From a virus, in the IMG/VR virus record IMGVR_UViG_3300034140_000006, positions 1-44,008 of that record: a stretch of DNA of 44,008 bases. The stretch is one strand, 5' to 3'. Made by a program: the position numbers and the translations under genes. Under the pieces are notes generated by a model. It saw nothing but the letters and a program-made list of their open reading frames with translations. It was not told where the DNA came from and ran no database searches. Shown here piece after piece: positions 1 to 44,008 of this stretch. Within the stretch, counting starts at the first letter, position 1. Every line of letters starts with the position of its first letter.

Positions 1-127
1 AAATTATTATTAATTACCTCGCATTATCACTTTTGTTACCCGAATTGTTACCCGATTTCTATTTCAGATGAACGCCACCATTCAGGTTGAGCTAAAACTG
101 CCAGCAAAAGCAGATGGCACACGTACA
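1..127. repeat. Terminal direct repeat, copy 1 (identical to 43882..44008)
   Basis: Direct comparison of the first and last lines of the window. The repeat includes the first 60 nt of the integrase ORF, so it is an overlap of a circular molecule rather than a biological terminal repeat. Confidence 0.9.
33..55 (+). promoter_or_regulatory. Tandem 11-bp direct repeat TTGTTACCCGA x2 (33..43 and 45..55), just upstream of the int start
   Basis: Read directly. Period is 12 bp and the repeat ends 12 nt before the int ATG. Candidate binding sites for a recombination-directionality or regulatory protein. Confidence 0.5.
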
Positions 128-1282
128 ATTTATATCCGAATCACCCAAAATCGAAAACACTGGCGCGTACCAGTGGGTTACTCCATCGAAGCAAAACACT
201 GGAATTCGGCAGCAGAATTTGACAAGAAAGTTAAAAGCTCCCATCCACTCCACAAAGTCATTAACGCAGCCATTCAGCAAAAATATTTAGAAGCAAAATC
301 AGAGCTTTTGAAAAGTAAAGTCAATCAAAACGCCCTTACACCAGCACTACTGCAAAGGGAACTAACCGGCCAAAACTCACAATCGTTTTTTGCTTTTTCT
401 GACATTATTGCAGCCCGGATTCGGCAAAAGAATTTCAACACATTCGAGCAGTACCAGACCGCACTCAACAAACTAAAAAAATACCTAAAAAACAAAGACC
501 TTTCTTTCGATGATCTGACCGTGCCTTTTTTAAAGTCTTACCAGGCTTACCTGCAGGGACTAGGAAACAACCAAACAACCGTATATAATTCTTTCAAGGT
601 GATCCGGGCGGTTTATTACCACGCCATACAGGACGAACTAGTGTCACAAGATAAAAACCCATTCTTTAGATTCCGGTTTTCGGCTGGGAAAGCGAACCGT
701 ACAAAACTAACTCAGGAAGAGATTGGACGAATTGAAGCATTAGAGTTAGAGAGGAACACACCCATCTGGCACGCACGAAATTACTTTCTATTTTCCTTCT
801 ACTGCGCAGGTATGCGCGTACGTGATGTATTACAGTTGAAATGGGTTAATGTGCGGAACGGCAGGATTGACTACGCAATGAGCAAAACCGGCGTGGCAAA
901 ATCAATTAAATTAATTGACAGAGCAGAAACGATACTTTCCTATTATCGTCCAGAAAAAATAACGATGACTCACTGGATCTTCCCGGCACTTAGCAACACA
1001 CGCGAGTACAATGATCAGTTGCTGAGGATGCATATTCGCAGTGTAGTTCCACGAATAAACAAGTGGTTGAAGGTGGTTGCAGAAAGAGCCGGCATCAATA
1101 AGCCCATATCCATGCACGTTTCCAGGCACTCAATGGCAGACATTGCTCGGACTAAAGGAGTAGACCTATATAATATAAGCAAGCTGTTGGGGCACTCTTC
1201 ATTGAAGATCACAGAAGCATACCTGAAAAATGATGACGAAAAATCAAGAGATTCTGCGATGGATAATATTTATAATAGCTAG
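68..1282 (+). CDS. int: Tyrosine integrase (Bacteroidota-type site-specific recombinase)
   Basis: 404 aa. N-terminal arm-type domain plus SAM-like core. Catalytic-box motifs AGMRVRD (R), HVSRHSMA (H-x-x-R) and LLGHSSLKITEAYL (H...Y). Confidence 0.95.
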   Translation: MNATIQVELKLPAKADGTRTIYIRITQNRKHWRVPVGYSIEAKHWNSAAEFDKKVKSSHPLHKVINAAIQQKYLEAKSELLKSKVNQNALTPALLQRELTGQNSQSFFAFSDIIAARIRQKNFNTFEQYQTALNKLKKYLKNKDLSFDDLTVPFLKSYQAYLQGLGNNQTTVYNSFKVIRAVYYHAIQDELVSQDKNPFFRFRFSAGKANRTKLTQEEIGRIEALELERNTPIWHARNYFLFSFYCAGMRVRDVLQLKWVNVRNGRIDYAMSKTGVAKSIKLIDRAETILSYYRPEKITMTHWIFPALSNTREYNDQLLRMHIRSVVPRINKWLKVVAERAGINKPISMHVSRHSMADIARTKGVDLYNISKLLGHSSLKITEAYLKNDDEKSRDSAMDNIYNS

Positions 1283-1315: not shown

Positions 1316-2818
1316 CTAATGTGCTGCCTGCATCTGAGGTTGTGGCAAGAATTTAATACACAACTCCCAGATGTGTTCGTAGGGAATGATCTCAATCTCG
1401 GTGTAGGCATCGCCCTCAGTGGGCAAGGAAGCCAGTTTATCCGAAAGGTATTGGCAGCGACGACGCATCTGATTCGGATCAAGATAGTAATTTTGGGATA
1501 GGGCGCGAAAAAGCTTGAAGAGCGTGCGCACGCGATCACTGAAGGAGGATTTCAAGTGTTTCACTATGTATTCATTAAGGGCATCGACTCGGTACATCAA
1601 CGAATCCATATCCTGTTTCTTCAGGAAGTAGAGGAACTGCAATACTAAGATAGCTACGTTTAAACCGGCCTTGTCCTTCCGGTAGTGAGGCAGTTGGGAA
1701 ACTAACTGGTTAAAGTCAAACTTGCGATCCACTTTCGGGGGGGGTAGCAGAAAGTGCAGGTAGGCCCGGTAGAGTGTCCATCGTTCTTGAGCTAGGGGAG
1801 AAATCTTGTGCCGATACGGATTTAATAATACGCTGGTCAGCAGGTGCTGGGCCAGGTCGTAGTTTTTCATGTGGAGAGCAAGCAGTACGTAGTTTTCCAT
1901 ATATGGAAACCAATGCCAATCCGATTCATCGAATGACTCCAGGTGCGCTTCAGCGTATTGAAGTCCGGCCTCGTACTGTTTGGTACGCAGGTATGCGTAC
2001 ACTTTTATGTAGCGGTTGTAGCGATGGTCAAAGCATTGTTCATTTATAAGCCCCTTCCCACAAAAGTCAACCGCTTGGTCAGTCAATTGAATAATTTCTT
2101 CAAAATTGTTGGTCAACTCCAAATACCAGATGTGTAATTTATAGTATTGCTCGAAAACTCCAAATGATTGGGTTAGCTGCCACAGCTCTTGCAGCCTTTT
2201 AACTGCTGCCATGACTTCTTGCAATAATTCTTGTCGTTGTTTAACAGACTGGTTCAGGCGTAGTTTCAGACCTAAGAATAAATGATTGGCTTCCTGTTCA
2301 TATTGAGCCATTTTTTGGTAGTGCTGAACCTTTTCCAGGTTTTTCTGATAGAGAACTGGCTTGTGTTGCTGCACGTAGAGGTATTGCAACGCTTCCAAAC
2401 CAGAGAGCAAAAATGAATTAAAGCCAGCTTTGGTAGATAAATCCACCAGTTTACAAGCCAGCTTTTCGGCATATTCGGCGCACCCCTTCGCCTGGAGCAC
2501 CTTGATTAAGTGAAACAATCGCCGGCACTCGTGCTCCAGTGCATTAGCCGGGTGGTTGCCAGGCTTTGCGAAATCCACAAAAAAAAGATTATTCAACAGC
2601 TTTCTCTTCAAACGCTTTTTCAGTGTCAGATAACGAAAGTCAGATTGATTTGTGCCATATATCGCCGCCGCTGCCTGTTCATCATTTTCGAAAGACCCCT
2701 CCACAATGCCTTTTAGATAGGTCAGCTCCTTACCCTGCTTTGATTTAAGCGAAATTAACGGGAGTGGCTGCTGCATGTCATCGGTCATGATATTAGCTAG
2801 CACCTTTAATTCTTTCAT
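1316..2818 (-). CDS. Helical-repeat (TPR-like) protein with HTH-like N-terminus; function unknown
   Basis: 500-aa ORF with ATG at 2818, convergent with int across a 33-nt gap. Leu/Lys/Gln/Tyr-rich with helix-pair-like segments (YEAGLQYAEAHL, NYDLAQHLLTSVL). The N-terminal stretch AAAAIYGTNQSDFRYLTLKKRLKRKL looks like an HTH. No catalytic motif recognised. Confidence 0.7.
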   Translation of the reverse strand: MKELKVLANIMTDDMQQPLPLISLKSKQGKELTYLKGIVEGSFENDEQAAAAIYGTNQSDFRYLTLKKRLKRKLLNNLFFVDFAKPGNHPANALEHECRRLFHLIKVLQAKGCAEYAEKLACKLVDLSTKAGFNSFLLSGLEALQYLYVQQHKPVLYQKNLEKVQHYQKMAQYEQEANHLFLGLKLRLNQSVKQRQELLQEVMAAVKRLQELWQLTQSFGVFEQYYKLHIWYLELTNNFEEIIQLTDQAVDFCGKGLINEQCFDHRYNRYIKVYAYLRTKQYEAGLQYAEAHLESFDESDWHWFPYMENYVLLALHMKNYDLAQHLLTSVLLNPYRHKISPLAQERWTLYRAYLHFLLPPPKVDRKFDFNQLVSQLPHYRKDKAGLNVAILVLQFLYFLKKQDMDSLMYRVDALNEYIVKHLKSSFSDRVRTLFKLFRALSQNYYLDPNQMRRRCQYLSDKLASLPTEGDAYTEIEIIPYEHIWELCIKFLPQPQMQAAH

Positions 2819-5174: not shown

Positions 5175-5687
5175 CTACAGAGCACCTTTTACCCTGCACA
5201 TTTCCCAAACCCAATCAGGAATAGCCCTTTTGCCACCCTCCCAATCCGCTATGGTGCGGAATGTGTTAGGTGCGTTAGGAACCAGCCACTGATGAAACTC
5301 CGTCTGGCTGAGTCCTAGCTGTTTTCTTATTGACAGCAGACGGGCTGCATCATCCTGGCTTGCTTCCTCAACTAGTTCGGGTGCCCACATACAGCGCGCT
5401 AACTCACGTTTCGCTTCACTATCCACATCATCCCAACGATCCATATAATTGTAGAAGGACTCAAAACTAAACCCAAGGCCCTCGTTTTTCATAATCATTA
5501 GGATCTTATCCAAGATCGAACCTACCTCATCATAACGACGATCCAGCAATTCGTTAAAATAAGTTATGCGGATTTTTGCTGTAGCTTCTCCGCGATGGTG
5601 AACAAACCTTTTGAGGGCAGCCCCAAAGTCCACCTCCTTCCTGTCCTTTGGTGAGTTGTACTTAGTTAACCACATCGGACATCTCAT
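5175..5687 (-). CDS. Protein with a C-terminal XRE-type HTH (170 aa)
   Basis: C-terminus LLSIRKQLGLSQTEFHQWLV...TIADWEGGKRAIP is Cro/C1-like. N-terminal ~110 aa unassigned. An alternative ATG lies at 5675. Confidence 0.6.
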   Translation of the reverse strand: MRCPMWLTKYNSPKDRKEVDFGAALKRFVHHRGEATAKIRITYFNELLDRRYDEVGSILDKILMIMKNEGLGFSFESFYNYMDRWDDVDSEAKRELARCMWAPELVEEASQDDAARLLSIRKQLGLSQTEFHQWLVPNAPNTFRTIADWEGGKRAIPDWVWEMCRVKGAL

Positions 5688-7392: not shown

Positions 7393-7717
7393 CTAACATT
7401 TTTTGCAGTCTTTCATTCAATTTCTTATTGCTCTCCACCATCTCTTTAAAAGATTTGCGGTCTTCCATTATCTCACTGTGTTCGTACCTTAAGATTGTCC
7501 ACTCTTGAGTGGGAATCTGCTGGGTTTTAATGGTAGTCACATCCGCTTCAATGTTGCTCACGCGCGAAAACAAAGCGAACACCAGCGTAAACGTCCCGAT
7601 AATTGCCGCGCTTGCTAAACCCAGCAACAATGGTATGATTGCCCGCGGTATACCAACGTATACTTTATCTTTATCCTTCGTAGTGCTCACGTTTATTTTT
7701 TGCGATAACAGACACAA
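7346..7717 (-). CDS. i-spanin-like type II membrane protein
   Basis: 123 aa. There is no ATG, so the start is TTG 7717 or GTG 7690. N-terminal TM IIPLLLGLASAAIIGTFTLVFALF followed by a charged helical region. Overlaps the lipoprotein gene as in Rz/Rz1-type pairs. Confidence 0.5.
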   Translation of the reverse strand: MCLLSQKINVSTTKDKDKVYVGIPRAIIPLLLGLASAAIIGTFTLVFALFSRVSNIEADVTTIKTQQIPTQEWTILRYEHSEIMEDRKSFKEMVESNKKLNERLQKMLDADEETIRPRSPRRY

Positions 7718-7776
7718 TAACAGCTTGTTATGTCAATTTTTTTGCTTATTTTGTATAATCTAATTCACGAAAAACT

Positions 7777-8262
7777 ATGGCAAACAGAACCAAATCCCCC
7801 GAAGAGTTTGAGTTGTTTTTTTGGAACAAAACCAACAAGAAAGCAGGACTTGGACCTAATGGTGATTGCTGGGAATGGCCCGTAAGTAAAAAGGGCACAT
7901 ATGGAAGGCTTCGTCACGGCAGAAAAGATCTGTCGGCTCACCGTTGCGCCTACGAAATAACACATGGTCCGATTCCAGAAGGCTTTGTAGTTTGTCACAA
8001 CTGCGACAATCGCGCTTGTGTAAACCCGGATCATTTGTTTTTGGGCACACACAAAGACAATTCCTGGGATATGGTAAAAAAGGGTCGTCATAGTAACGGA
8101 CAGCGCAGTAAAACACATTGCCCTAAGGGTCATCCTCTTGCTGGTGACAACCTTGTTCCTTGGCTCAACAAACGTCGTTGCCTTACCTGTAACAGAGAAA
8201 ATGCAAGACGCAAGCAGGCAATTTATCAAGCACGCAAAAGAGCACAAGCGACTCCAGCTTAG
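7777..8262 (+). CDS. HNH homing endonuclease
   Basis: 161 aa. Motifs CWEW...[35 protein letters not shown] and DN are the classic HNH_3 pattern. Opposite strand to all flanking genes. Confidence 0.9.
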
Positions 8263-8302
8263 TATGGCGTCCTTAACTGTAATCGTAGATGTTGCTAAGT
8301 CC

Positions 8303-8638
8303 TTATCGGCAGTTTTCACAGTCCTTTTTTTTCGGTACTATATCGTAGTTTTCGTATAGGTCTATCAACAGATTCGCGAAATCCTTTTCGGCAATGAGGC
8401 TTTTTGCTAACGATTCCGCTTCCATATCGTCTACCATCCGGCCTTGCAAATCATAGACGTGGGGCAAGGTATTCCTGATGTTATTAAGTCCGTCAATATT
8501 GCGCCGGGGTCCAAGGACCAAATGCGAGTACGCATAGATAATCTGGTCAATGAAGGGTCCGCCCAATGGCCTTCGTTGCGGTTTCTTGTATATAATAAAT
8601 AGGTGTAGGAATCGAATTCTCCATTTCCAGACTTTCAC
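8303..8638 (-). CDS. Hypothetical protein (111 aa; GTG start)
   Basis: Only long ORF between the endolysin and the HNH gene. The start codon at 8638 is GTG, so the exact start is uncertain. Confidence 0.45.
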   Translation of the reverse strand: MKVWKWRIRFLHLFIIYKKPQRRPLGGPFIDQIIYAYSHLVLGPRRNIDGLNNIRNTLPHVYDLQGRMVDDMEAESLAKSLIAEKDFANLLIDLYENYDIVPKKKDCENCR

Positions 8639-8677
8639 TGCAAAAACCTCCCGGCATCAGGCCATTAATCAACAAAT

Positions 8678-9274
8678 TCATTTCGTAATACTCTTAGTTG
8701 CTGAATCGGGCATTAAGGCCAAAAAGAATATCTTCGCATAAGATGCGATGAGGTCCGCTTTGTCCATGCCGTTAATGATTTTTCGAGCATTCACCCAGTC
8801 CTGAACCGTAACGTTGAAGTACTGAGACAGCTTACGACCTGTGAAACTCCCCCGGCTCATACCGTAGAAGCATATCTTTATCGCTACGTCTGCATCTAGT
8901 GCCCGTTCCGGCTTATTCACCAGATCAATTCCGAACACCTTCCCCATATTTTCATAATTGTACTTCCACGTCAGCTGCACATACCCACGACCGTAGTACG
9001 TTTCGCCGGTAATCGGGTCGGGTTTTCCGTAGGAATGCGCTTTGCCCTTTCCGTATTCCTCAATAGGCTGCATTGTCCTAGCAGTTTCGTGGTACGCCGT
9101 AGCTAAGATATAAGCCAACCAACGCCGGTCCCGGCCAGCGGGGGGATAGCCAATAATGTCAGCTACTTGCCAAAAGTCTAAGAACTTTTCCAGGCCCTCA
9201 AACGACTGAGTAGGGATACCCTTAGGAAAGAATCCATTGCGGACAATGTGGTAAAAGTGGTCCCTGTCTATCAT
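8678..9274 (-). CDS. Endolysin, glycoside hydrolase family 19 type
   Basis: 198 aa. YHETARTMQPIEEYGKG and YYGRGYVQLTWKYNY match the GH19 catalytic Glu and GRG-x-QLT-x-x-x-NY signatures. Confidence 0.85.
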   Translation of the reverse strand: MIDRDHFYHIVRNGFFPKGIPTQSFEGLEKFLDFWQVADIIGYPPAGRDRRWLAYILATAYHETARTMQPIEEYGKGKAHSYGKPDPITGETYYGRGYVQLTWKYNYENMGKVFGIDLVNKPERALDADVAIKICFYGMSRGSFTGRKLSQYFNVTVQDWVNARKIINGMDKADLIASYAKIFFLALMPDSATKSITK

Positions 9275-23965: not shown

Positions 23966-25273
23966 CTAGGCAACTGCCTTATGATTGAGCCCTAGCATCT
24001 GGAATTCATCGTAATGGAAGGCAACGTGGTCGTATCGGAAAGCATCAGCCACGTGCCCATAGTCGTGCTTATTACAGTCGTGCTTATCAAGTCCGCCATC
24101 TGATGACGTCTTGGTTCGCTGAATGTCTGATATCAATGTCGGACAGCCCTGCTCTGAGATGCGTAAGTCAGGGGAGAAGGTGAGGAGTCCATTGGTGATT
24201 AGCCGACTGTTAACGTAAGACACGGGCGCAGTGAGCACCCGGGAAAAGTCGCCTTCTGGAATACATTGCCGAATTATCTGGTACCCTGAGATATTACCAG
24301 CAGAGAAAGCCGAACCGCCATTGCCCGAAGGGTCACCCGTAATGAAGTAATAAGGGGCCGGAAACATAGCTTTCACCGTCGCACACAGGCCATAGAGGTC
24401 TAAGCCTGGTTCATGAAACTCCTTCAGATAGTGATTAGACCGCATAGGCGTCTTCTGACTAATAAGGCAGGTTTCCCGCTTACTATTGAAGTCAAAGGAT
24501 AGGTAAACCGGTTCATTCCGGTTAAATTCAAGTTCCTTGCTTACGTGCTTGGCATAGTTGAATTTGGAGAAGAAGGGGTTTTCGGGTCGGATGATTCCCC
24601 AGTTTCCAAGGGCGTAGACTTCGTAGTACAAGGGGTCGATTTCCCGCATTCGGTTGAGTACTGCCGCATAATCTGACCCGACAAAGCGATTGTCCAGATA
24701 TGTAGTCTTAAGAGTGGTGGTATCATCAGGATTGCCGGTAAAGAAGCGTTTAACAAGCCAATGTTCTTTGTTGATGGGGTTGAAGGAAAGGAATATCTTT
24801 TTGCGTTCGTCGGATTCACCGCGCAAACGAATGTCGATCTGGTTGAATTCTTCCTTGGATAGTTCGGTAGCCTCTTCTACCCAAATCTCTTGCATTTCAG
24901 CTAGTGACTTGAGCTTTTCAGGGTCGGATACCCCAAAGAACCATATCTCATTTCCGTTGATGTGAATTTCAAAGCGTCCATCGAAGAAGCGTACTTCGTC
25001 TTCAATGTTCCATCGTTTGGCAACGTCTTTGAATTGCTGATAGACTGATTTCCGGATGGTATCAGCTACTTTGCGAATGACGGCATATTTGCGCCCCCGG
25101 GTTTGGAGGCACTTAATGAACAATCTGGCCGCTAAGAAGTCGCTCTTGCCACTTCCACCACCACCATAAGCAACGTTATAACGGGTATCCGTTGCCAGGA
25201 GAGGCAGATACACGTCATTAAAAAAGGAATTATCAATTAGAACATCATCTTCCTCAAGTTGTAGGGACGTCAT
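23966..25273 (-). CDS. terL: Terminase large subunit
   Basis: Walker A motif VAYGGGGSGKS. Overall resemblance to PBSX-family terL. ATG at 25273 (the track start at 25276 is TTG). Confidence 0.9.
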   Translation of the reverse strand: MTSLQLEEDDVLIDNSFFNDVYLPLLATDTRYNVAYGGGGSGKSDFLAARLFIKCLQTRGRKYAVIRKVADTIRKSVYQQFKDVAKRWNIEDEVRFFDGRFEIHINGNEIWFFGVSDPEKLKSLAEMQEIWVEEATELSKEEFNQIDIRLRGESDERKKIFLSFNPINKEHWLVKRFFTGNPDDTTTLKTTYLDNRFVGSDYAAVLNRMREIDPLYYEVYALGNWGIIRPENPFFSKFNYAKHVSKELEFNRNEPVYLSFDFNSKRETCLISQKTPMRSNHYLKEFHEPGLDLYGLCATVKAMFPAPYYFITGDPSGNGGSAFSAGNISGYQIIRQCIPEGDFSRVLTAPVSYVNSRLITNGLLTFSPDLRISEQGCPTLISDIQRTKTSSDGGLDKHDCNKHDYGHVADAFRYDHVAFHYDEFQMLGLNHKAVA

Positions 25274-25742
25274 CAACGCCCCCCTTTCCTGGAATACTTG
25301 GAATATTGAGGTTAACTACAATCTTGCGTTTGGGCTTGCTTTCTTGCGCTTTCTCTTTGTCTTTGGCATAGAAACCAATATGTCGGGCAATCTGATCAGT
25401 GGCTTTATTGGCTCCAGCACTATCGAATTTCCATTCACCAGTCTCTTTCAGTTCCCCGTCGATCCACTCCATCACTGGTTCGGCCGCCATACAACGGTTG
25501 GATATGTCTACAAAGCGTTGTAACACCCAATCAGCCTCTATTTTAAGGCGTTCAGAGCGCTTTTGCTTCAATTCATCTATATAATGCTGAATGTTAACTT
25601 TTGTCAACATCGTTGAAGCAATAGAGCGTGCCGTTTCTGCACTATATCCGGCTTCAATAGCCGCTCTAGTGGCGTTCAAGTGAACAAGGTAACATTCGCA
25701 AAAAGTGCGTTGTTTATCGTTTAACTCATTGACATCTGACAT
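25254..25742 (-). CDS. terS: Terminase small subunit (Terminase_2 type)
   Basis: LNDKQRTFCECYLVHLNATRAAIEAGYSAETARSIASTMLTKVNIQHYI is the typical N-terminal HTH of P27-family terS. ATG at 25742. Confidence 0.85.
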   Translation of the reverse strand: MSDVNELNDKQRTFCECYLVHLNATRAAIEAGYSAETARSIASTMLTKVNIQHYIDELKQKRSERLKIEADWVLQRFVDISNRCMAAEPVMEWIDGELKETGEWKFDSAGANKATDQIARHIGFYAKDKEKAQESKPKRKIVVNLNIPSIPGKGGVDDVPTT

Positions 25743-25950
25743 AATGTTGCACACCTCCTACCGTCGTATTAACCTTTTTGAGGCGCTCTAAATCGTCCCC
25801 GCATTTGGTACCTAGATCAATTTCATTTCTGGCCACGACACCGCCGGTTGAATTGACTGTTACGTCCATACACTTCTGGCAGGTTTCGGTTTTCTTACAG
25901 GAAATAGATAGGGAGGCAATCAGGGCAATCGAGAGGATACACTTTTTCAT
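25726..25950 (-). CDS. Small Cys-rich lipoprotein (about 74 aa)
   Basis: Signal and lipobox-like MKKCILSIALIASLSISC. The mature part has 5 more Cys. An alternative ATG lies at 25965. Confidence 0.6.
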   Translation of the reverse strand: MKKCILSIALIASLSISCKKTETCQKCMDVTVNSTGGVVARNEIDLGTKCGDDLERLKKVNTTVGGVQHYVRCQ

Positions 25951-25990
25951 CGCACTTGTTCGCATCCGGGGGATGGTTTACCCTGATGCC

Positions 25991-26122
25991 GAAATAAAGG
26001 TAGGATATTCCCTAGGGATGAGCAAGCCGCAGTGTGATGAGTGGAAATAAAGGAAGTAATGTTCTTGCTTTATTGTGTACGATGTCGTACATTTATGACA
26101 ATGAAAGCAGACGAAATAAAGG
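25991..26122 (+). repeat. Three copies of the decamer GAAATAAAGG (25991..26000, 26044..26053, 26113..26122)
   Basis: Read directly. The first two lie in the divergent intergenic region and the third lies inside the XRE ORF. Confidence 0.45.
26076..26091. promoter_or_regulatory. Palindrome TGTACGA-tg-TCGTACA, ending 4 nt before the XRE gene ATG
   Basis: 7-bp arms read directly. Shares the hexamers GTACGA/TCGTAC with the 26-bp early-cassette element. Confidence 0.5.
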
Positions 26123-26265
26123 ATATACGGCAAAAGCTGGGATTAACACAGCTAGAAATGGCTGAAAAGCTAGGTTGTCGGCGGGCTTCTGTAAGTGATT
26201 GGGAAACGGGTCGAAGAAAGATTTTACCGGCTTATGCAAAATTAATCGAACAACTAATCAAGTAA
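26095..26265 (+). CDS. XRE-family HTH transcriptional regulator (56 aa)
   Basis: IKDIRQKLGLTQLEMAEKLGCRRASVSDWETGRRKILP is a canonical Cro/C1 HTH. ATG 26095 is preferred over the GTG at 26041. Confidence 0.85.
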   Translation: MTMKADEIKDIRQKLGLTQLEMAEKLGCRRASVSDWETGRRKILPAYAKLIEQLIK

Positions 26266-26266
26266 T

Positions 26267-26665
26267 ATGTCAGATAAAAGACAAGTCCGCTACTATGTCA
26301 ACGAATTGACGGGCGAAGAACGATTTATGGAAGTAGGACCAAAGTCTACTTATATCAATCTTTATTACGAACCCATTTCCCTAGAAGCTGCATTGAATGC
26401 CGGATTAGAAATTGATGAAATGCTTTATCTAAATGGAGTGGACAATGACACCTTTAGGGCATATGTCATTCACTATGGAAGCCTTCTTAAGACTGAAAGT
26501 CAAAAAATCCTTCTTTGTAACAGCTGGCTGAGATGCTTGTGGAAGGTGAGAGATAGGGAAATCAATTTTAATGAAAAACCAAGTGGAAAGGCTTTTGTAA
26601 AATCGCTTGAACTAGAAATAAGAAAACAGAAGCTGGAAATAAAAAAGAAAAAGAAACTGCGGTAA
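26267..26665 (+). CDS. Hypothetical protein (132 aa), tightly coupled to the XRE gene
   Basis: The ATG lies 1 nt after the XRE stop (TAAtATG). Lys-rich C-terminus. No motif recognised. Confidence 0.65.
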   Translation: MSDKRQVRYYVNELTGEERFMEVGPKSTYINLYYEPISLEAALNAGLEIDEMLYLNGVDNDTFRAYVIHYGSLLKTESQKILLCNSWLRCLWKVRDREINFNEKPSGKAFVKSLELEIRKQKLEIKKKKKLR

Positions 26666-26689
26666 ACCAACCCTCATAATAACTAGATA

Positions 26690-27025
26690 ATGGAGAATCC
26701 CTTTGAAATCATTAATAGACGACTTAGCAATATTGAGGCACTATTACTTGATATTAAGCATAATCGTAGTGAACCCCTTACACGTGCAAACTCAGCTCCT
26801 GATATTGGAGACGTAAAATTGGCTGAAGAAGTCACCGGATTAGCTAAGCAAACCATCTATCAAATGGTAAGCGCCCGCCGTATCCCTCACCGCAAGCAAG
26901 GCAGACGCCTCTACTTCTCCCGTACCGAACTTCTGGCCTGGATAGCATCCGGCAAACGCCTTACAAATGAAGAAGTTGATGCCGAACGAGACGAATTCCT
27001 AACTAGCAAGCAAAAATCACTATGA
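26690..27025 (+). CDS. HTH_17 / excisionase-family DNA-binding protein (111 aa)
   Basis: N-terminal helix MENPFEIINRRLSNIEALLLDIK followed by LAEEVTGLAKQTIYQMVSARRIPHRKQGRRLYFSRTELLAWIASGK. This architecture is very common in Bacteroidota mobile elements. Confidence 0.8.
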   Translation: MENPFEIINRRLSNIEALLLDIKHNRSEPLTRANSAPDIGDVKLAEEVTGLAKQTIYQMVSARRIPHRKQGRRLYFSRTELLAWIASGKRLTNEEVDAERDEFLTSKQKSL

Positions 27026-27369
27026 AAGCCGCTGAAATTATTGCTGGAGAGCACACGATTGTTGACTTTTTGATGGATGTTAACAATATAAAATATTTTA
27101 AGGTTAAGCCAATAAGCGAAGACGATATTGTTAAGAAAATTTCAGTAAATGATTATCTCCTTCTGAATAGAAAACGGATGTCTGAAGAGCTAAAAAAAAC
27201 AGAAAAAAACACGAGGAAAAAGATCACATATTTAAATATAATGCTTAAAAAGACTCGCGCTCTCAAAAGATCTTTTCCGATTTTAAAGGAAGAAATAAAT
27301 GGTGCGATTAAAGAAATAAATAGGTGGATAGAATATTACAAGTTACACCTTCTCATAGAAAGGAACTAA
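27022..27369 (+). CDS. Hypothetical Lys-rich helical protein (115 aa)
   Basis: ATGA overlap with the upstream gene. Hand-counted lines in this gene give 25-30% G+C. Confidence 0.6.
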   Translation: MKAAEIIAGEHTIVDFLMDVNNIKYFKVKPISEDDIVKKISVNDYLLLNRKRMSEELKKTEKNTRKKITYLNIMLKKTRALKRSFPILKEEINGAIKEINRWIEYYKLHLLIERN

Positions 27370-27391
27370 CCTTAACCGAAATAGCAACGAT

Positions 27392-27565
27392 ATGAACCAG
27401 TTAAAAGAGATAGCAAAACAGGTAAGTATGTTTATGCAGGCAGAATTGGCTTGTCCGGGGATAATTCACAAATATGCATCTAACGCCATCGAATTAAACG
27501 ATAAAAAACAGCGTGAAGAAGCAATAAATACAGCATTAAAAAACGCCCTCCAATCCGAAGACTGA
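27392..27565 (+). CDS. Unannotated small ORF (57 aa)
   Basis: ATG 27392 and TGA 27563..27565. Sequence MNQLKEIAKQVSMFMQAELACPGIIHKYASNAIELNDKKQREEAINTALKNALQSED. The 3' end overlaps the capsid terminator. Confidence 0.4.
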   Translation: MNQLKEIAKQVSMFMQAELACPGIIHKYASNAIELNDKKQREEAINTALKNALQSED

Positions 27566-27572
27566 AGGGCGT
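27538..27572 (-). terminator. Rho-independent terminator (- strand) after the capsid gene
   Basis: On the minus strand: a 13-bp stem (including 2 G-U pairs) capped by a UUCG tetraloop and followed by TTTTTT. Confidence 0.8.
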
Positions 27573-27591
27573 ACCAAGAGCAAATGCTTAA

Positions 27592-28716
27592 TTAAGCCGC
27601 TTGCGTAGCAGTATAACGGAACATACCGTTTACCCCGTTCAGCGGGTCGCCTGCACCCATCGGGGCTGGTGGTACGAATACTTCGTAGGAGAGAGACAGG
27701 ATGAACAACCATCCGGGCGTAACGCAACCAGACTCATCTACTGCAAGGTCAAACTGAAGCCCTGGCAATTCATCGAAAGTAACCCGTCCGTAGGAAGTGT
27801 TTGCCATCCGCTGAATCTGAACACCGTTGATAGTATAACGGTTAGCGGTTACCAGCTTATGAGCACCTGCAGAGATTACGGCGAATTGGTTAGCACCGAA
27901 ACCGGCAGTAGCATCATCCACCAAAGGATCAAAGTAAATCCGGTAAGGATTGATAGCATTGATCTTATTGTAATCCACGCCATCTAATGAGCAACATCCG
28001 TATCCAAGGGATTCAAAGAAAGACACAATCCGGTTACCACCTAAGATGATGGGGCGTCCAATACCTTCATTGAAACGATAGTCGGCCATCAACTGATCAA
28101 TACCAGCGCTAGTCCGGGTGCCATCCGCTTTGTACAGTTCGATGTTTTGAGCAGTGGTGTTGGTAGAACGAGCGTTTACCCCAAAAGCGCTTTTCAAGCG
28201 CAGCAACACGTCCTTATCCAAGTCCTGAACAAGCTTACGGGCGTGCATCCGAAGGATAGTAGCCAGTTCGTTCATTACGGGCGTGTTAGGCACGGAGGCC
28301 CTCATTCCTCTGCTGTTAGTCACAATACGGGCAGCATCACCACACAGGGATTTAGCACGGTCAACAGAGAATGAGAAAGACTGCTGAAGATACTTAGTCA
28401 GCGTGAAAGTGTCTTCAATAGGGGCGGCAGCTGGATCCGCCGCGCAAGTGGGGGTAGTTACGGATGCCGCATTGATGTTTCCGTAGTGACGGATACGCAC
28501 TTTCGGCAGACCGGCAGCGGTTCTTTCTACGGTAGCGACGGTATCAGTAGACTTACCTAATAATTCTCCTTCGGTGAGTACACTTAGTCCCTGAAGGGCT
28601 TCAGGATCACGAAGAGCTTTTACAGCTCCGATGTTTCCAAAGGTGGTTCCCTGTACACCAGGGGCAACATTTTCAAGTGCAACGATTGCGGCAGCACATG
28701 CGCCTAATTGAGCCAT
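27592..28716 (-). CDS. Major capsid protein (probably HK97-fold)
   Basis: 374 aa, directly downstream of the scaffold-like gene and followed by a strong terminator. Assigned by synteny and size. Confidence 0.7.
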   Translation of the reverse strand: MAQLGACAAAIVALENVAPGVQGTTFGNIGAVKALRDPEALQGLSVLTEGELLGKSTDTVATVERTAAGLPKVRIRHYGNINAASVTTPTCAADPAAAPIEDTFTLTKYLQQSFSFSVDRAKSLCGDAARIVTNSRGMRASVPNTPVMNELATILRMHARKLVQDLDKDVLLRLKSAFGVNARSTNTTAQNIELYKADGTRTSAGIDQLMADYRFNEGIGRPIILGGNRIVSFFESLGYGCCSLDGVDYNKINAINPYRIYFDPLVDDATAGFGANQFAVISAGAHKLVTANRYTINGVQIQRMANTSYGRVTFDELPGLQFDLAVDESGCVTPGWLFILSLSYEVFVPPAPMGAGDPLNGVNGMFRYTATQAA

Positions 28717-28757
28717 TTTTTACGTTTTCTCCGCACATCCGGGGCGGGCGGTTTGAC

Positions 28758-29627
28758 CTACTCGGTCGTGAGGTCTACTGAAAACCTCTTAGCCGTAGCG
28801 GTTCCACTTGTCGGGGCATCAATCACAATGGTTGAATTACCACCTACAGGGGCATCCGATACGGAAAGCAATTTGTGTTCGCCTAACACCCGATCGGTGA
28901 ATGTGGCCAGGTCTACTTTTTTATTGGTGGCCGGGTCGTAGAACTCCTCAAGCCCATTACTGCCTTTCTTACCCAAAGCTAGTCTACCGGAGGCATCCAG
29001 GTCGAAAGTCAGGCCTTCGTGCTGATTCATTGCCCGTTCAATTTTGGCCTTTACCAAAAGAAGTCCATCCGGATCGTCGAGAATGTGCCTTGGAAGCTTC
29101 TGAGAACGCAAATAGGCGTCCAGTTCCCGGTTTACCTCCCGTTGGTGGTACTTCGTCTCCACTTCAGAGATAGATTTGGCCGCGTTCTCTTTCTCCTGCT
29201 TAATGGCGTCCTTTATGGCAGCTAATTCAGCATTGAGGCGCTTTACCTCATCCTTATCCCCGTCGGCAGAGGCTGTTTTGGAAGCCTTTTTAAGTTCTTC
29301 CATCTTGTCAGCAAACAACTCCAACCGCTTGTAGGTGGATGTTTCGCCTTTGATTGCTTCGTAGGCATCGGCCGGCAAATACTTCTGTGAACGGTCAAGC
29401 AGGGTTTCGTCAGCAGTTTTGAGAAAGTCTGCTTTCAGACGGGACTTAACGGCCGGATTGGAAACGGCAGCTTCAAAGCCCATCAACGAATCAAAACTTT
29501 TGTTTAACTCAGTAGGGATTTCGATTTTAGCCAGGTCCTGATTTGCCAAAATGAATTCTCTTACTTTGTCAGCGGGGGCTCCCCCTTTTTCTAATACATC
29601 ATTTAACTTGTCCAGCAGTGAGCTCAT
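28758..29627 (-). CDS. Scaffolding protein
   Basis: 289 aa, highly charged Lys/Glu/Ala-rich helical protein immediately upstream of the capsid gene. Confidence 0.65.
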   Translation of the reverse strand: MSSLLDKLNDVLEKGGAPADKVREFILANQDLAKIEIPTELNKSFDSLMGFEAAVSNPAVKSRLKADFLKTADETLLDRSQKYLPADAYEAIKGETSTYKRLELFADKMEELKKASKTASADGDKDEVKRLNAELAAIKDAIKQEKENAAKSISEVETKYHQREVNRELDAYLRSQKLPRHILDDPDGLLLVKAKIERAMNQHEGLTFDLDASGRLALGKKGSNGLEEFYDPATNKKVDLATFTDRVLGEHKLLSVSDAPVGGNSTIVIDAPTSGTATAKRFSVDLTTE

Positions 29628-29682
29628 AATTGTTCGCCCTTACGGGCCGGTTAATATTGAAAATAAAATGTCGGATGCTTAC

Positions 29683-29997
29683 TTATGCGGGGTTTTCACT
29701 ACCTGCAGCATCCTCCTCATTTGAGTCCTCTTCATTTGAATCAGAGCCTTCAGATGCTTTTGCCTTCTTCGAAGATTTAGCTTTGGGCTTATCTACATCT
29801 CCATCGGCGCCTTTAGCTGCAGGAGCCTCCTTTTTTTTCAGATCTGCGACCAATACCGCGATATTTCTACCATCCTCACGGATGTTGACCCCCTCACCCA
29901 AGTCTTCGAATTCTTCAGCTTGAGAAGTTTTTGCAAAAGAGGCATCAAACAAGTGCTCAATACCGGATGTTTTGTGTCTAAAGATGTGGTCTGCCAT
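29683..29997 (-). CDS. Head-module protein with an acidic tail (104 aa)
   Basis: The C-terminus ends in SEGSDSNEEDSNEEDAAGSENPA, encoded by a short tandem DNA repeat. Confidence 0.55.
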   Translation of the reverse strand: MADHIFRHKTSGIEHLFDASFAKTSQAEEFEDLGEGVNIREDGRNIAVLVADLKKKEAPAAKGADGDVDKPKAKSSKKAKASEGSDSNEEDSNEEDAAGSENPA

Positions 29998-30046
29998 GGC
30001 TAAAATTGTTAGGGTTTTAAAGTAATATATATTGATTCAAAAGTAG

Positions 30047-30883
30047 TTATCCCTTCATAGCCTGGTAAGCCGCTTTGGTGATGGGTATGAAGCGATGCTT
30101 GCAGCCATACCCCCCGGCCCGTACCAGAATGTTTCCCGCGTTGGTACCGGGAATCTTTCCAGACCAACTATCACCGGCCATTTCAAGCACTTGCGCCCGG
30201 GTAAATACCTTTCCAACCTTCTCCGCACACCACGTACGGGTGCTGTCTATCTGAACACCTGCGTAGAGGTAATGCTGTAATCCTAAATCAGCGCTTACCG
30301 TTTCAGTATAGTTGCGGCTAAACTGATACAGCCCATCATTCACTTGATTCTTTGCCCATTTAGCCGACAAACCGTTTTCTGAAAGCGTTTCGGTGAGGGT
30401 TTGCGTTAGCTGCTTACTGGAAGCTTGACCGGACACCCCTTGCTGGAGCACTTTCATTAGCGGCTGTTCGTAGTTGGCTTTCAAGCCCGATGCCAACAGG
30501 CTTTCCTTCGTGGTTTCAAGCGTTTGCCGGAACACCTCTCTATAGACTGCTTTAGGCTCAAATCCTTCAACGGCCGCATTGAAATAGGCATTGCTTATGG
30601 TCGTGATCCTGAAAAGAGAGGTAAGCACCTCACTGGCTGCTTTCCCATAGGTACCTTTCAGTAGGATGTTATTTACCGAATTGGTGTATTTCAGGCCTTT
30701 TTTTAAGTTAGTCACCGTGGCCCGAATGCTACCAGAAGGCGACTTGTCGAGCGTCGCAATAAATGCTTTTAAATCGTCAAGCATTTCAGCATTGGCAGTG
30801 TTGACACCAGACGCGAAGCTTTCCGACGCTGAAGAGATCGTTTTTTCAAGCTCATCGATAAACTTCTGTCCGTCGAATTCCAT
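30047..30883 (-). CDS. Minor head / head morphogenesis protein (Mu F / SPP1 gp7-like)
   Basis: Downstream of the portal gene. The C-terminal GGYGCKHRFIPI resembles the family's H-x-x-C-R-C...P motif. ATG 30883 lies 1 nt after the portal stop. Confidence 0.6.
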   Translation of the reverse strand: MEFDGQKFIDELEKTISSASESFASGVNTANAEMLDDLKAFIATLDKSPSGSIRATVTNLKKGLKYTNSVNNILLKGTYGKAASEVLTSLFRITTISNAYFNAAVEGFEPKAVYREVFRQTLETTKESLLASGLKANYEQPLMKVLQQGVSGQASSKQLTQTLTETLSENGLSAKWAKNQVNDGLYQFSRNYTETVSADLGLQHYLYAGVQIDSTRTWCAEKVGKVFTRAQVLEMAGDSWSGKIPGTNAGNILVRAGGYGCKHRFIPITKAAYQAMKG

Positions 30884-30884
30884 G

Positions 30885-32717
30885 TCATGCGGCGAAAGGT
30901 GGATTTTCTGGTATTGGCTGGGGCGGTTCCACTGCCAAGGGAGGTTCAGTAGCCATGGCCGCATCAACTAGTGCATACAGCGCATCTTTTTGCTCCGAAA
31001 ACTTCTTATCAAAGAATGTCGGGTCAGCTTCAAAAGCGGCCCGGGCAAAGTAGTTAAATTGCGCTGAAAGGGTATACTCCCGTTTCGTGCAGCCCCCATT
31101 TGCCAGAATAGTAAACCGGTCATCTTCGGTTTTGAAGGGCAACGGGTCGTGTTGGGCTGCCAGGGTAACAAGCTTATACTCCATCGAATCGGAACCAAAC
31201 TCTTTACTTGCGTATTCGGCTTGTAAGGCAAAGATTACGGCAGCGTCCATCTTGTTTCCTACTGCCTCTTTTATTTGCGCTGCCAGGGTTTCGATTGAGA
31301 AAGTATCAAACTTACGAGGTACCGGAATATAGGGCAGACTATCCACCAACTGCTTTTCTGGCAATACCTTTCCATAGCGCATACAGGCAATGTAGTAGAC
31401 CGTAGGACGAAGGATGTTTTCCACCAAATGCCTCGCAATTTCAAAATAGAAGTTGTTTACTTCCTGCCGGTCGTAGCTTTTGGCTACCCCGGACTGTGCT
31501 AGGGGAGTTGTCTTTGCGTACTCCATATTCAGCGCCTTCATTGCCGACATTAAATCATCCTGCACCTGCTGTTTTAGCAGTTCGGTAGGTGCTAAAGGCT
31601 TTTCAATGTAGCCTTTATGGGGTGGGGCAATGGTTTTGCCGTTTTCCCCGGGGATGCCAGTACTGTCGGGCGTGAAGGTGGTAATACCTAAGCCCGAAGT
31701 GGGGGTAATATGATACTTTTGCCCGTTACAAGAATTGCAAGTATGGGAGACGCCTTCAACGAAACGGCTGCCGGTACCATTACACGTAACACATTTGCTC
31801 GTTACATACTGCCAGGCTTCGGAGTGTACGTGGTACACCATCTGCACTAGAAAGTCACTTTGACGCTGCAGTGCCTGATTCAAGTAGGTTAGACAGGGCG
31901 AAAGAATGCTCTTATACAGCCGTTGGCCGTTGTAGCGGGTTTTTACGATCTTTCCACCGCCTAATTTGAACGCCGGCATCCATTCGTTTGCGTAATGCAG
32001 GTTGGCTACGAGCTTGCGGTTTTCGGTAAGGTCCACCACCTGCGCCTGGTATTGCGGTCGTTCTCTATCACCTACCTGAATCGCCTTAATGTAGCTTTCT
32101 TTGTCTAGGAACCAGTACACCTTTCCGGAGGCATTGCGGAGGGTTTCGCCGGTTAAAACGCTCTTTTCGTCGGATAGCAGGCAACAAAACTCCCCTTCAA
32201 TAAAGTCAATGACTCTCTCAGAAGGGAAATAGTAGGGATACGGCCGGATATAATCAAGTTCGTTTGCCGGCGTGTTGGAAGGCAAAACTGCAACAACCCC
32301 GTTCGGGTCCGACAACAAAGGGGAAATAATGTAGCCAAATAGCCAGTTCCTCAGGCTGTTATCAATCGGAAAGTCTTCTTCCAGGTATACTTTTAGATTG
32401 TCTTCTTCAGCAATCCTAGCAGGCATCTCAGGATACGTGAAAACAAAATCGTCCGCTTGGTTTACCTTCTTGATTGACGTGGCAATCGAATTTACCGCCG
32501 GTTCGGTAATCGGGGTAAAGTTCTCTCTTCGGTATTTTTTTTGGGCTTCGGTTTCGTGCGGCCGCGTAATATCTATCAGGTGCTTAGGATACATACCATC
32601 CACGTGCACCCGTAAGTCACGGGCTATTTCAATGTTTTCATTAAAAAAGGGGTATACCTCACCAGCCGAATCGGGCGCTAGCTTAAGATATACCCCTATC
32701 TGTTCGATGGTGAGCAC
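30885..32717 (-). CDS. Portal protein (610 aa; GTG start) with an embedded CxxCxGxG zinc-finger-like insert
   Basis: Size and position upstream of the MuF-like gene. Contains CVTCNGTG...CNSCNGQK. The portal assignment rests on synteny only. Confidence 0.65.
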   Translation of the reverse strand: MLTIEQIGVYLKLAPDSAGEVYPFFNENIEIARDLRVHVDGMYPKHLIDITRPHETEAQKKYRRENFTPITEPAVNSIATSIKKVNQADDFVFTYPEMPARIAEEDNLKVYLEEDFPIDNSLRNWLFGYIISPLLSDPNGVVAVLPSNTPANELDYIRPYPYYFPSERVIDFIEGEFCCLLSDEKSVLTGETLRNASGKVYWFLDKESYIKAIQVGDRERPQYQAQVVDLTENRKLVANLHYANEWMPAFKLGGGKIVKTRYNGQRLYKSILSPCLTYLNQALQRQSDFLVQMVYHVHSEAWQYVTSKCVTCNGTGSRFVEGVSHTCNSCNGQKYHITPTSGLGITTFTPDSTGIPGENGKTIAPPHKGYIEKPLAPTELLKQQVQDDLMSAMKALNMEYAKTTPLAQSGVAKSYDRQEVNNFYFEIARHLVENILRPTVYYIACMRYGKVLPEKQLVDSLPYIPVPRKFDTFSIETLAAQIKEAVGNKMDAAVIFALQAEYASKEFGSDSMEYKLVTLAAQHDPLPFKTEDDRFTILANGGCTKREYTLSAQFNYFARAAFEADPTFFDKKFSEQKDALYALVDAAMATEPPLAVEPPQPIPENPPFAA

Positions 32718-40327: not shown

Positions 40328-40467
40328 TCAATGAAATCTTTAATAGTAGTGAAATACGCCGTTCATAATCCTTATCTAAATGTACATATAATATCTTACG
40401 TATCAATGATATTATTCAGATATTTTTCATACATTTGATATTGTTTATACATTTAACCCCTTCAACT
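40328..40467. promoter_or_regulatory. AT-rich divergent control region
   Basis: Contains an 8-bp palindrome ATGTACAT (40380..40387) and a direct repeat ATACATTT (40429..40436 and 40447..40454). Confidence 0.45.
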
Positions 40468-40665
40468 ATGATTAACCAAACCATTTTCCCAATGGCTAAC
40501 TTGAAACCAGGCAAGTATCCGCATCAGGTAGCGGTAAATCTTGATCCGGATAACTTCCAATACTTTTCTAATCTGGCTAAGAAAGACCAGCGTAGACTAG
40601 GAGAATATATTCGTATTATGCTAGACCGTTTGCGACTTGCAGAGCTGGAAAAGGAAAAGCCCTAA
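40468..40665 (+). CDS. Possible ribbon-helix-helix (CopG/Arc-like) regulator (65 aa, or 57 aa from ATG 40492)
   Basis: HQVAVNLDPDNFQYFSNLAKKDQRRLGEYIRIMLDRL fits a strand-helix-helix pattern. The only + strand gene in the early region. Confidence 0.4.
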   Translation: MINQTIFPMANLKPGKYPHQVAVNLDPDNFQYFSNLAKKDQRRLGEYIRIMLDRLRLAELEKEKP

Positions 40666-43637: not shown

Positions 43638-43814
43638 TTAGTACTGCGCTTTTACTTCAGTAGCCTGATAATAATTATCAATGTGCTTTTGAAAGAAGGT
43701 GACCTTTTTGCCTACCTGGTTGTAGCCGATGATTCTTGCTTTACGCCACCGATCTAGCGTTACCACGCTTACGCCTAAAATGTCAGCAGCTTGTTTTCGG
43801 GTGTATTTTTCCAT
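43638..43814 (-). CDS. Unannotated excisionase-like / HTH_17 DNA-binding protein (58 aa)
   Basis: MEKYTRKQAADILGVSVVTLDRWRKARIIGYNQVGKKVTFFQKHIDNYYQATEVKAQY. MerR/excisionase-type winged HTH. Divergent from int and first gene of the minus-strand early operon. Confidence 0.7.
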   Translation of the reverse strand: MEKYTRKQAADILGVSVVTLDRWRKARIIGYNQVGKKVTFFQKHIDNYYQATEVKAQY

Positions 43815-43819
43815 CTGTG

Positions 43820-43864
43820 ATAACTGTTGTTATTATATGATGGCAAATGTATAACTATCGTTAT
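43820..43864. promoter_or_regulatory. Two ATAAC-N4-GTTAT palindromes (43820..43833 and 43851..43864) in the int / xis-like divergent region
   Basis: Read directly. Centres are 31 bp apart. Confidence 0.55.
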
Positions 43865-43881
43865 TACAAAACAAGTGTTTA

Positions 43882-44008
43882 AAATTATTATTAATTACCT
43901 CGCATTATCACTTTTGTTACCCGAATTGTTACCCGATTTCTATTTCAGATGAACGCCACCATTCAGGTTGAGCTAAAACTGCCAGCAAAAGCAGATGGCA
44001 CACGTACA
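43882..44008. repeat. Terminal direct repeat, copy 2 (duplicate of 1..127, including a truncated int 5' end at 43949..44008)
   Basis: Identical to 1..127 with an offset of 43,881 bp. Confidence 0.9.

Follow-up and report, generated by a model that had tools for sequence, protein, structure and literature searches.

We consider here a small group of genes in the DNA of a virus (IMG/VR virus record IMGVR_UViG_3300034140_000006, positions 1 to 44,008), located between the gene of the putative major capsid protein and the small terminase gene (terS), and mostly read in the direction opposite to both. The whole stretch of 44,008 nucleotides (nt) is called the window in what follows, and the opposite-strand genes are called the island. 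Our best explanation, which we hold to be rather probable, is that the phage acquired the segment of about 25743..27535 horizontally, as an accessory cassette (a "moron") that regulates itself, is likely expressed in the lysogen and carries effectors of a binding type. The parts of this explanation differ in strength. That the segment is an acquired, self-regulated accessory operon is well supported, while its biological target is a guess.

The capsid-terS junction in related phages

The virus is a temperate phage with a Bacteroidota-type integrase. The minus strand carries all the genes except the integrase gene, an HNH gene, one small open reading frame (ORF) at 40.5 kb and the island. The minus-strand genes include those of an ERF recombinase, a replication initiator and a Dam-type methyltransferase, and the structural and lysis genes follow the order portal, MuF-like, scaffold-like, putative capsid, terS, terL, tape-measure, tailspike and endolysin. 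The putative major capsid protein (374 amino acids (aa), 27592..28716, minus strand) flanks the island and lies outside the insert. This protein has no match in Pfam, PHROG or the PDB sequences, and it takes the label "capsid" from its position only, which follows the portal, MuF-like and scaffold-like genes.

A search of 5.8 billion proteins gives only three relatives of the putative capsid protein, at 60-66% identity. A megablast comparison with phages gives no relatives, and queries with the capsid and TerL proteins (as single sequences and as alignments) against IMG/VR and the JGI metagenomes give nothing closer than about 33% identity in TerL. The phage lineage is very sparsely sampled. 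The contigs that contain two of the three capsid relatives can be recovered from Logan and ENA (L008-L013, capsid identity 66%; L014, capsid identity 60%), and these contigs are partial. They stem from the sequencing runs SRR20363588-663 and SRR32059652.

The gene order in both relatives is that of the window: portal, MuF-like, a small protein, scaffold-like, capsid, terS, terL and the tail genes. All the flanking proteins of the window have homologues in the relatives, with identities of 36-73%. TerL is at the upper end (73%), and TerS (Terminase_2, 4.3e-29; 25254..25742, minus strand), which makes the left flank of the insert, is 46-53% identical. The gap between the capsid gene and terS is only about 80 bp in the relatives. 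A strong hairpin with a U run is located 3' of the capsid gene in both of them (L009 and L014; -24.3 and -25.0 kcal/mol), and the ATG of terS comes 15-20 nt past the U run of this terminator. The six proteins of the insert, that is the five of the island and a lipoprotein-like protein, give 0 tblastn matches in L008-L014.

Because the relatives have terS right after the capsid terminator, and because the insert proteins are without matches there, the island together with the lipoprotein gene is probably an insertion of about 1.8 kb that is specific to this phage. As delimited by this comparison, the putative insert extends over about 25743..27535, with an approximate right boundary, and contains the lipoprotein gene, a control region and the five-ORF operon. 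An earlier reading of the window, made from the sequence only, had described the island as an opposite-strand, compositionally distinct moron. This description holds: the island is missing from the syntenic relatives, has a low G+C content and is antisense to the lytic genes, and the junction in the related phages has terS directly after the terminator with no trace of the island or of the lipoprotein gene. Since the related phages are without the island, its genes are not conserved late genes. The sequence-only reading had also placed the lipoprotein gene in one unit with terS and terL; the gene is missing from the relatives and is part of the putative insert.

The base composition sets the island apart from the rest of the phage. 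Its G+C content is 37.7%, compared with 45.6% for the window, and is the lowest of 851 sliding segments of the same size, tied with the region at 39-40.5 kb. The G+C content at third codon positions (GC3) is 0.33-0.38 in the island and 0.41-0.55 in the core genes. The whole insert (25743..27535) has 39% G+C versus the same 45.6%. Hand counts had put three lines of the island far below one line of the tailspike gene, and a recount gives 26.7%, 30% and 25% for the island lines and 55% for the tailspike line.

The known systems to which the cassette can be compared most directly are the morons and prophage accessory loci of HK97 and lambda-type phages, with lom, bor and rexAB of lambda, and the antisense locus of ST64B (PMC7067206). 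As in these loci, an extra block that is missing from close relatives is found between two conserved genes and beside a terminator. It has a deviant composition, its own control region, an orientation antisense to the lytic genes, and small genes of unknown function. A classical moron, on the other hand, consists of a single gene that has a promoter and a terminator to itself and in most cases shares the strand of its neighbors. The cassette is unlike it in being two-directional, in having six ORFs and two regulators of its own, and in interrupting the capsid-terS junction. The features of a moron that can be tested here are found: absence from the relatives, deviant composition and an antisense orientation to the lytic genes.

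The genes of the cassette and their control region

The rightward part of the cassette is made of five plus-strand ORFs. The first encodes an XRE-family helix-turn-helix (HTH) regulator of 56 aa (26095..26265; HTH_3, 3.8e-12, residues 8-54). It is followed by p132, a basic ORFan protein of 132 aa (26267..26665) with an isoelectric point (pI) of 9.2 and a Lys-rich C-terminal helix, by a DNA-binding protein of 111 aa of the HTH_17 (excisionase/MerR-like) type (26690..27025; HTH_17, 1.8e-11), and by p115, a Lys-rich ORFan protein of 115 aa (27022..27369; pI 9.7). The last is the 57-aa ORF of p57 (27392..27565), whose coding status is uncertain and whose 3' end enters the hairpin of the capsid terminator. 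All five are found at the coordinates at which they had been read from the sequence. The two tight junctions that had been pointed out are likewise seen in the sequence: the stop codon of the XRE gene is separated from the start of p132 by a 1-nt spacer (TAAtATG), and the start of p115 overlaps the stop codon of the HTH_17 gene by 4 nt (ATGA). XRE with p132, and HTH_17 with p115, thus look like two translationally coupled pairs, each of a DNA-binding protein and an ORFan.

Several results bear on whether these ORFs are real genes. When the island is shuffled 2000 times with its dinucleotides preserved, three or more same-strand ORFs that each reach 100 codons never come up (0/2000). Scored with a codon model that had the core genes of the phage as its training set, the five ORFs and the lipoprotein gene are each best in the annotated frame of the six, and an antisense control ORF is not. 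The length of the 57-codon ORF is within chance, and the antisense strand has an equally long one. That this ORF exists had been stated correctly; that it is unannotated had not, as public gene callers call it, as they do the lipoprotein gene. At 90% identity, each of the five island proteins, and the lipoprotein too, forms a cluster with no other member. The island proteins are basic (pI 9.6 for XRE) except for the acidic p57 (pI 5.7), and no hydrophobic segment is found in any of them.

On the other side of the control region, the minus strand encodes a lipoprotein-like, Cys-rich protein of 79 aa (25726..25965) with a putative signal peptide and a ...SLSIS|C motif. Its only hydrophobic segment is N-terminal and ends with ...SLSIS-C, and the lipobox is imperfect. 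The end of its gene overlaps the start of terS by 17 nt. The protein has no match in Pfam, PHROG or NCBIfam and no relative in IMG/VR, and its PADLOC matches are not significant (E = 0.02-0.03).

The lipoprotein and XRE genes diverge from a control region of 129 bp (25966..26094). The decamer GAAATAAAGG has only three exact copies in the 44-kb window, starting at 25991, 26044 and 26113 on the plus strand. The first copy is at 25991..26000. The second belongs, with an imperfect inverted partner (AATAAAGGAAG-N7-CTTGCTTTATT, 26044..26074), to an inverted repeat with arms of 11 nt (26046-26056 and 26064-26074) that are 91% complementary. The third (26113..26122) is within the coding sequence of XRE. 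A palindrome with perfect arms of 7 bp, TGTACGAtgTCGTACA (26076..26091), is located 4 nt ahead of the XRE start codon and is a candidate operator. This 16-bp palindrome, TGTACGATGTCGTACA, is single in the window, where the chance expectation is 0.15 matches even with three mismatches. Both the palindrome and the repeated decamers had been reported for the promoter region, and both are there. The palindrome overlaps a near-consensus Bacteroidota -7 box, TACATTTA (26088..26095, read by eye), and the imperfect inverted repeat overlaps the expected -33 region.

At the right edge of the insertion slot, the intrinsic terminator of the capsid transcript (27543..27572, minus strand) has a stem of 13 bp, a loop of 4 nt and a T run, with a folding energy of -23.9 kcal/mol (z = -5.2). 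The plus-strand version of this hairpin is weaker (-14.2 kcal/mol) and is without a U run. The terminator that had been placed at this edge is therefore present, on the minus strand only.

Combining these features, we propose how the cassette may have arrived and how it may work. It would have been inserted into the 15-20 nt between the terminator of the capsid gene and the start codon of terS, and it would consist of two back-to-back units around the 129-bp control region, with the lipoprotein-like gene leftward and the five packed small ORFs rightward. The XRE protein, and perhaps HTH_17 too, would bind the local sites and repress its own promoter, which would make the operon autonomous and self-limited. 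The capsid terminator would insulate the operon from late transcription. In the relatives, transcription would reach terS only by read-through of the terminator; in this phage, late transcripts that extend as far as terS would be antisense to the operon and may silence it in lytic growth. Genes that are antisense to the lytic genes of a prophage and have their own promoter are described as typical of accessory (moron) loci (PMC7067206). As the operon is on the non-lytic strand, which it shares with the integrase gene (68..1282, plus strand; a tyrosine integrase with the domains Arm-DNA-bind_5 and Phage_int_SAM_5), we propose that it is most likely expressed from the prophage.

The same junction allows a different function for the control region, in which a leftward promoter of the cassette, under the control of XRE or HTH_17, drives the lipoprotein gene, terS and terL, and so gates the expression of the packaging genes. 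The short gap between terminator and terS in the relatives has no room for a promoter, and the lipoprotein gene, which is joined to terS by the overlap, starts at a control region with operator-like repeats; both would suit such an arrangement. No minus-strand promoter is identified in the control region, however. The sole exact TAnnTTTG box (26244..26237, minus strand) falls within the XRE gene and precedes the start of the lipoprotein gene by about 270 nt. Read-through of the terminator across the island, as presumably happens in the relatives, would express terS too. We consider a takeover of late control extremely improbable.

The regulators, their partners and the alternative explanations

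The XRE protein is a bare DNA-binding domain, as HTH_3 spans residues 8-54 of its 56 residues. It resembles HipB, the 434 repressor, the C-terminal domain of MqsA and the controller proteins of restriction-modification systems about equally, and its family matches are all below the cut-offs (for example 38.5 bits to MqsA, for which the cut-off is 61.8). Its nearest relatives in IMG/VR are located at the cro position of Firmicutes-type switches, with 46-53% identity over about 40 residues; this search requires shared exact peptides, and is weak evidence. The genes that follow the cro-like relatives in two loci (L093 and L095) were taken for HTH_17 genes by eye, and Pfam did not confirm them. 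The sole signal of a paralogue in the window is a weak one (phmmer E = 0.004), between XRE and the C-terminus of a 170-aa protein (5175..5687, minus strand).

An XRE-type gene at a divergent region of about 130 bp with repeated sites is also what one finds in the cI/cro regions of the lambdoid phages and in immI of P22. The sequence-only reading had offered an immunity region displaced into the morphogenesis module as one possibility. In such a lysis-lysogeny control region, XRE, HTH_17 or both would be the maintenance repressor. The nearest viral relatives of XRE are in genetic-switch regions, at the cro position as in the lambdoid comparison; the integrase gene and the island are both on the non-lytic strand; and no classical CI (an HTH with an S24 peptidase or an M78 partner) is found elsewhere in the window. 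The cassette differs from cI/cro and immI in that the gene divergent from XRE encodes the 79-aa lipoprotein-like protein and not a repressor partner, and in that the 56-aa XRE protein has no C-terminal domain for oligomerization or cleavage and no sensor domain. Copies of the palindrome and of the decamers are found at 25991..26122 only; the early promoter region at 43.8 kb and the region at 40.3-40.5 kb have none, and the repeats of these early regions are different from the motifs of the island. The whole region is missing at this position from the syntenic relatives L008-L014 (partial contigs). Moreover, the region 40328..40470 looks more like a switch, with an exact TACATTTG, long inverted repeats and a plus-strand ORF of ribbon-helix-helix appearance. 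An immunity region displaced into the island is thus not borne out, and we regard it as very unlikely. It is the least supported when set against the toxin-antitoxin and anti-defense readings given below.

A regulator gene that comes first, a spacer of 1 nt and a palindromic operator-like site at the promoter are also the layout of a type II toxin-antitoxin or abortive-infection module, which had been suggested for this island. XRE would then be the antitoxin and autorepressor and p132 the toxin, and HTH_17 with p115 maybe a second pair. The genes are small, adjacent and co-oriented, tight or overlapping, and each ORFan has a DNA-binding partner; both proteins of the first pair are of the usual size, and the cassette would be carried in a prophage. 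The XRE protein resembles the HTH domains of HipB, MqsA and Y4mF. Compared with HipBA, MqsRA, HigBA and the controller (C) proteins of restriction-modification systems, the likeness is in the small HTH_3 protein encoded first, the palindromic site at its own promoter and the coupled downstream gene. The differences are in the proteins themselves. The protein encoded downstream is in none of the toxin or nuclease families, and the matches of XRE to HipB, MqsA and Y4mF are confined to the HTH and far below the curated family cut-offs. With HTH_3 on residues 8-54, the protein of 56 aa has no separate segment that could bind and neutralize a toxin. Both partners are basic (pI 9.6 and 9.2). Neither p132 nor p115 has a toxin family (Pfam, NCBIfam, PADLOC, PHROGs) or a homologue, and the model of p115 is a generic hairpin. 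In PADLOC-DB v2, XRE and HTH_17 have only generic HTH matches (HTH_VI, the N-terminus of RmrA, capH, control protein, mad1), and p132, p115 and p57 have none. As PADLOC, Pfam and NCBIfam give nothing beyond the generic HTH, the suggested defense or toxin-antitoxin cassette is not upheld, and we hold the toxin-antitoxin explanation to be quite improbable.

The second regulator belongs to a better populated family. Besides HTH_17, the protein matches phrog_25262 (4.8e-15; function unknown in PHROG), and the family has a conserved N-terminal helix, MENPFEII.... There are 78 relatives in genomes (L015-L092) at 25-44% identity, all in Bacteroidota, including Flavobacteriia and Paludibacter. They are mostly stand-alone genes in variable islands. 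The neighbors that recur in the 78 loci are DUF6943, DUF6266, DUF5675, SNase and SRAP, and an integrase is near the HTH_17 relative in only about 6 of the 78. The family is found repeatedly with DUF6943 and DUF6266 genes as divergent neighbors, or else downstream of a set made of a DUF6266-like gene, a DUF5675 gene and a small-membrane-protein gene. This neighborhood in the Bacteroidota is conserved and uncharacterized, and the literature on DUF6943, DUF6266 and DUF5675 is uninformative on their role beside HTH_17.

We have also considered HTH_17 and its downstream gene as a conserved pair, and this candidate is rejected: the 78 loci have no shared partner, and the partner in a further locus, from an unrelated phage (L007, IMGVR_UViG_3300011708_000018, 7414..8979), is unrelated to p115. 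In this phage locus, an unrelated ORF of 136 aa begins over the stop codon of an HTH_17 homologue (29% identity, 9e-17). The two genes run against the head genes; a small lipoprotein gene diverges from them, and an XRE-like gene with a MuF-like neighbor converges on them. By analogy, this one parallel hints that regulator-led mini-operons recur in Bacteroidota phages, and it is only a lead.

The three proteins that are not HTH proteins had been said to match no recognizable family. This is correct for all three, since p132, p115 and p57 have no match in the Pfam, PHROG, NCBIfam or PADLOC libraries. For p132 and p115 the statement can be extended to the absence of any homologue among billions of sequences. 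A word-indexed search of 5.8e9 clustered proteins returns self-hits only for both, and a full HMMER search with p132 over 1.84e9 representatives returns p132 itself and one low-complexity match (E = 3e-4). With tblastn, neither has anything at E <= 0.1 in the phages and plasmids of GenBank, and the PDB sequence search gives no match. For p57, the family, cluster and IMG/VR pattern searches were made, with no relative in IMG/VR. The AlphaFold2 model of p132 from its single sequence is poor (predicted local distance difference test score, pLDDT, of 46). For p115, also from a single sequence, the model has a confident C-terminal helical hairpin (helices 42-84 and 86-114, pLDDT about 90). The Foldseek comparison that had been suggested for this protein finds, in the PDB and BFVD, generic hairpins only and none at E <= 0.001.

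Small ORFans in an operon with HTH regulators are, in addition, the usual appearance of anti-CRISPR (Acr) operons with their anti-CRISPR-associated (Aca) regulators. The island could be an anti-defense operon of this acr-aca type, in which p132, p115 and p57 inhibit host defenses and the HTH proteins, acting at the inverted repeats, repress a strong promoter once an early burst of expression has passed. Anti-CRISPR proteins are typically without Pfam domains and homologues (PMC9765179), as p132 and p115 are. The criteria of AcaFinder for a short-gene operon are genes on the same strand with gaps below 250 bp, proteins under 200 aa and an HTH protein under 150 aa (PMC9765179), and the island agrees with all of them. 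In addition, p132 is encoded directly upstream of an HTH gene, and the inverted repeats overlap the putative promoter. The cassette is thus like the acr-aca operons in its ORFans under 150 aa and small HTH regulators, in the inverted repeats at its promoter and in occupying an accessory slot in the genome of a temperate phage. It is unlike them in several respects. No homologue of a known Acr is found, as neither p132 nor p115 has a single homologue in collections to which NCBI and UniRef sequences contribute. The XRE protein of the island has no match to Aca2_YdiL of Pfam, Aca2 being the sole Aca family covered. Most acr genes are upstream of aca (PMC8633003), and here an HTH gene leads the operon. 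Finally, the lytic genes, whether early, middle or late, are all on the other strand from the island, and this fits expression in the lysogen better than immediate-early expression. We consider this explanation unlikely.

By the features that can be tested in its sequence, then, the cassette is not a member of a known toxin-antitoxin, defense, Acr/Aca or immunity family. Returning to the acquired accessory cassette, we suggest that p132 and p115 act stoichiometrically by binding a protein or a nucleic acid, and are most likely not enzymes. A role in binding or inhibition is favored because these effectors are small, basic and cytoplasmic, and because they have no catalytic signature. They may serve in a conflict between phages or between phage and host, either of the exclusion type or of the inhibitor type. 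The lipoprotein is a plausible surface-acting exclusion factor. It can be compared with the exclusion lipoproteins Ltp of Streptococcus phage TP-J34, Llp of T5 and Cor of phi80 and N15, which are also very small secreted or lipidated accessory proteins of a temperate phage (a property that is predicted here). It is different from these in having no sequence similarity to them (no Pfam or PHROG match), and in being encoded on the late strand and joined to terS by an overlap.

One can go further and suppose that the cassette is an undescribed conflict module, for exclusion or abortive infection or for anti-defense. Such a module would be made of two pairs of an HTH protein and a coupled binding protein, with effectors that have no homologue in 1.8-5.8 billion sequences, and would perhaps also put the terminase operon under its own divergent, XRE-regulated promoter. 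This is a doubtful proposition, to which we give a small but real chance.

Several points weigh against the acquired, self-regulated cassette. Only two relative lineages are available, and the three capsid lineages are about equidistant (60-66% identity); a single loss in the common ancestor of the two relatives, instead of a gain in this phage, is therefore possible. By the insertion, terS and terL are cut off from the head operon, and this may make it doubtful that the cassette is dispensable. A sigma-70 scan finds no plus-strand promoter, and the exact Bacteroidota TAnnTTTG box is absent from the control region, with the near-match TACATTTA only. As p132 and p115 are ORFans, there is nothing positive that ties them to conflict functions. 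With respect to loss and gain, the low G+C content, the low GC3 and the reversed orientation favor gain over loss.

If our explanation is right, the cassette shows in textbook style, for a Bacteroidota-type lineage that is poorly sampled, how a phage takes up accessory cargo. The cargo would have landed, reversed and bringing its own regulator, where only a few bases separate a strong terminator from the start codon that follows. With six ORFs, two regulators and candidate operators, it is a small and delimited candidate for defense and anti-defense screens. Its proteins are singletons from this phage only, and any function would at the outset be that of a single case, not of a widespread system. 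The comparison with relatives and known systems also corrects two over-readings, that of a known toxin-antitoxin or defense system and that of a phage immunity region.

The genome around the cassette

Bases 1..127 of the window are identical to bases 43882..44008. The source contig of the MEGAHIT assembly has 44,022 bp, which implies that its ends overlap by a k-mer of 141 bases. Because of the identical ends and the length of the source contig, the phage is a complete, circularly assembled genome of 43,881 bp that is circular or terminally redundant. Its host is probably a member of the Bacteroidota, to which both the domain types of the integrase and the genomic relatives of the HTH_17 protein, all 78 of them in this phylum, point. 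Across the whole window, no Rfam family and no tRNA gene is found.

The terminase genes are located between the head and tail modules and not ahead of the portal gene (23966..32717), and the relatives L008, L009 and L014 are alike in this. Just past the lysis region and amid the minus-strand genes, an HNH_3 endonuclease gene (7777..8262, plus strand; 1e-14) overlaps a minus-strand ORF of 184 aa that is probably spurious. The gene of the 170-aa protein mentioned above belongs to a cargo region that has the lysis genes on one side and the integrase gene on the other; the protein has a C-terminal HTH and a sub-threshold match to Aca2_YdiL (E = 0.007). Convergent with the integrase gene is the gene of a 500-aa protein (1316..2818, minus strand), which has no significant family match and only a sub-threshold one to DDE_Tnp_1_2.

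Two other divergent regions of the genome contain repeats. The first, of 134 nt (43815..44008 / 1..67), separates the integrase gene on the plus strand from a 58-aa HTH_17 gene (43638..43814, minus strand; 2.7e-08). It holds TTGTTACCCGA twice in tandem and a box TACATTTG (43851..43844, minus strand). This region probably holds the early promoter, and perhaps contains the arm sites of the integrase or attP. The second (40328..40470) is AT-rich, with about 31% G+C, and has three 18-mers in tandem besides an imperfect inverted repeat of 36 nt (40377-40412 / 40420-40455). The lone plus-strand ORF of this part (40492..40665, about 57 aa) is preceded by an exact Bacteroidota -7 box, TACATTTG, at 40430; the ORF has the look of a ribbon-helix-helix protein by eye and no family match. 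The region 40328..40470 is possibly a genetic switch or a replication origin, and is a better candidate for a switch than the island.

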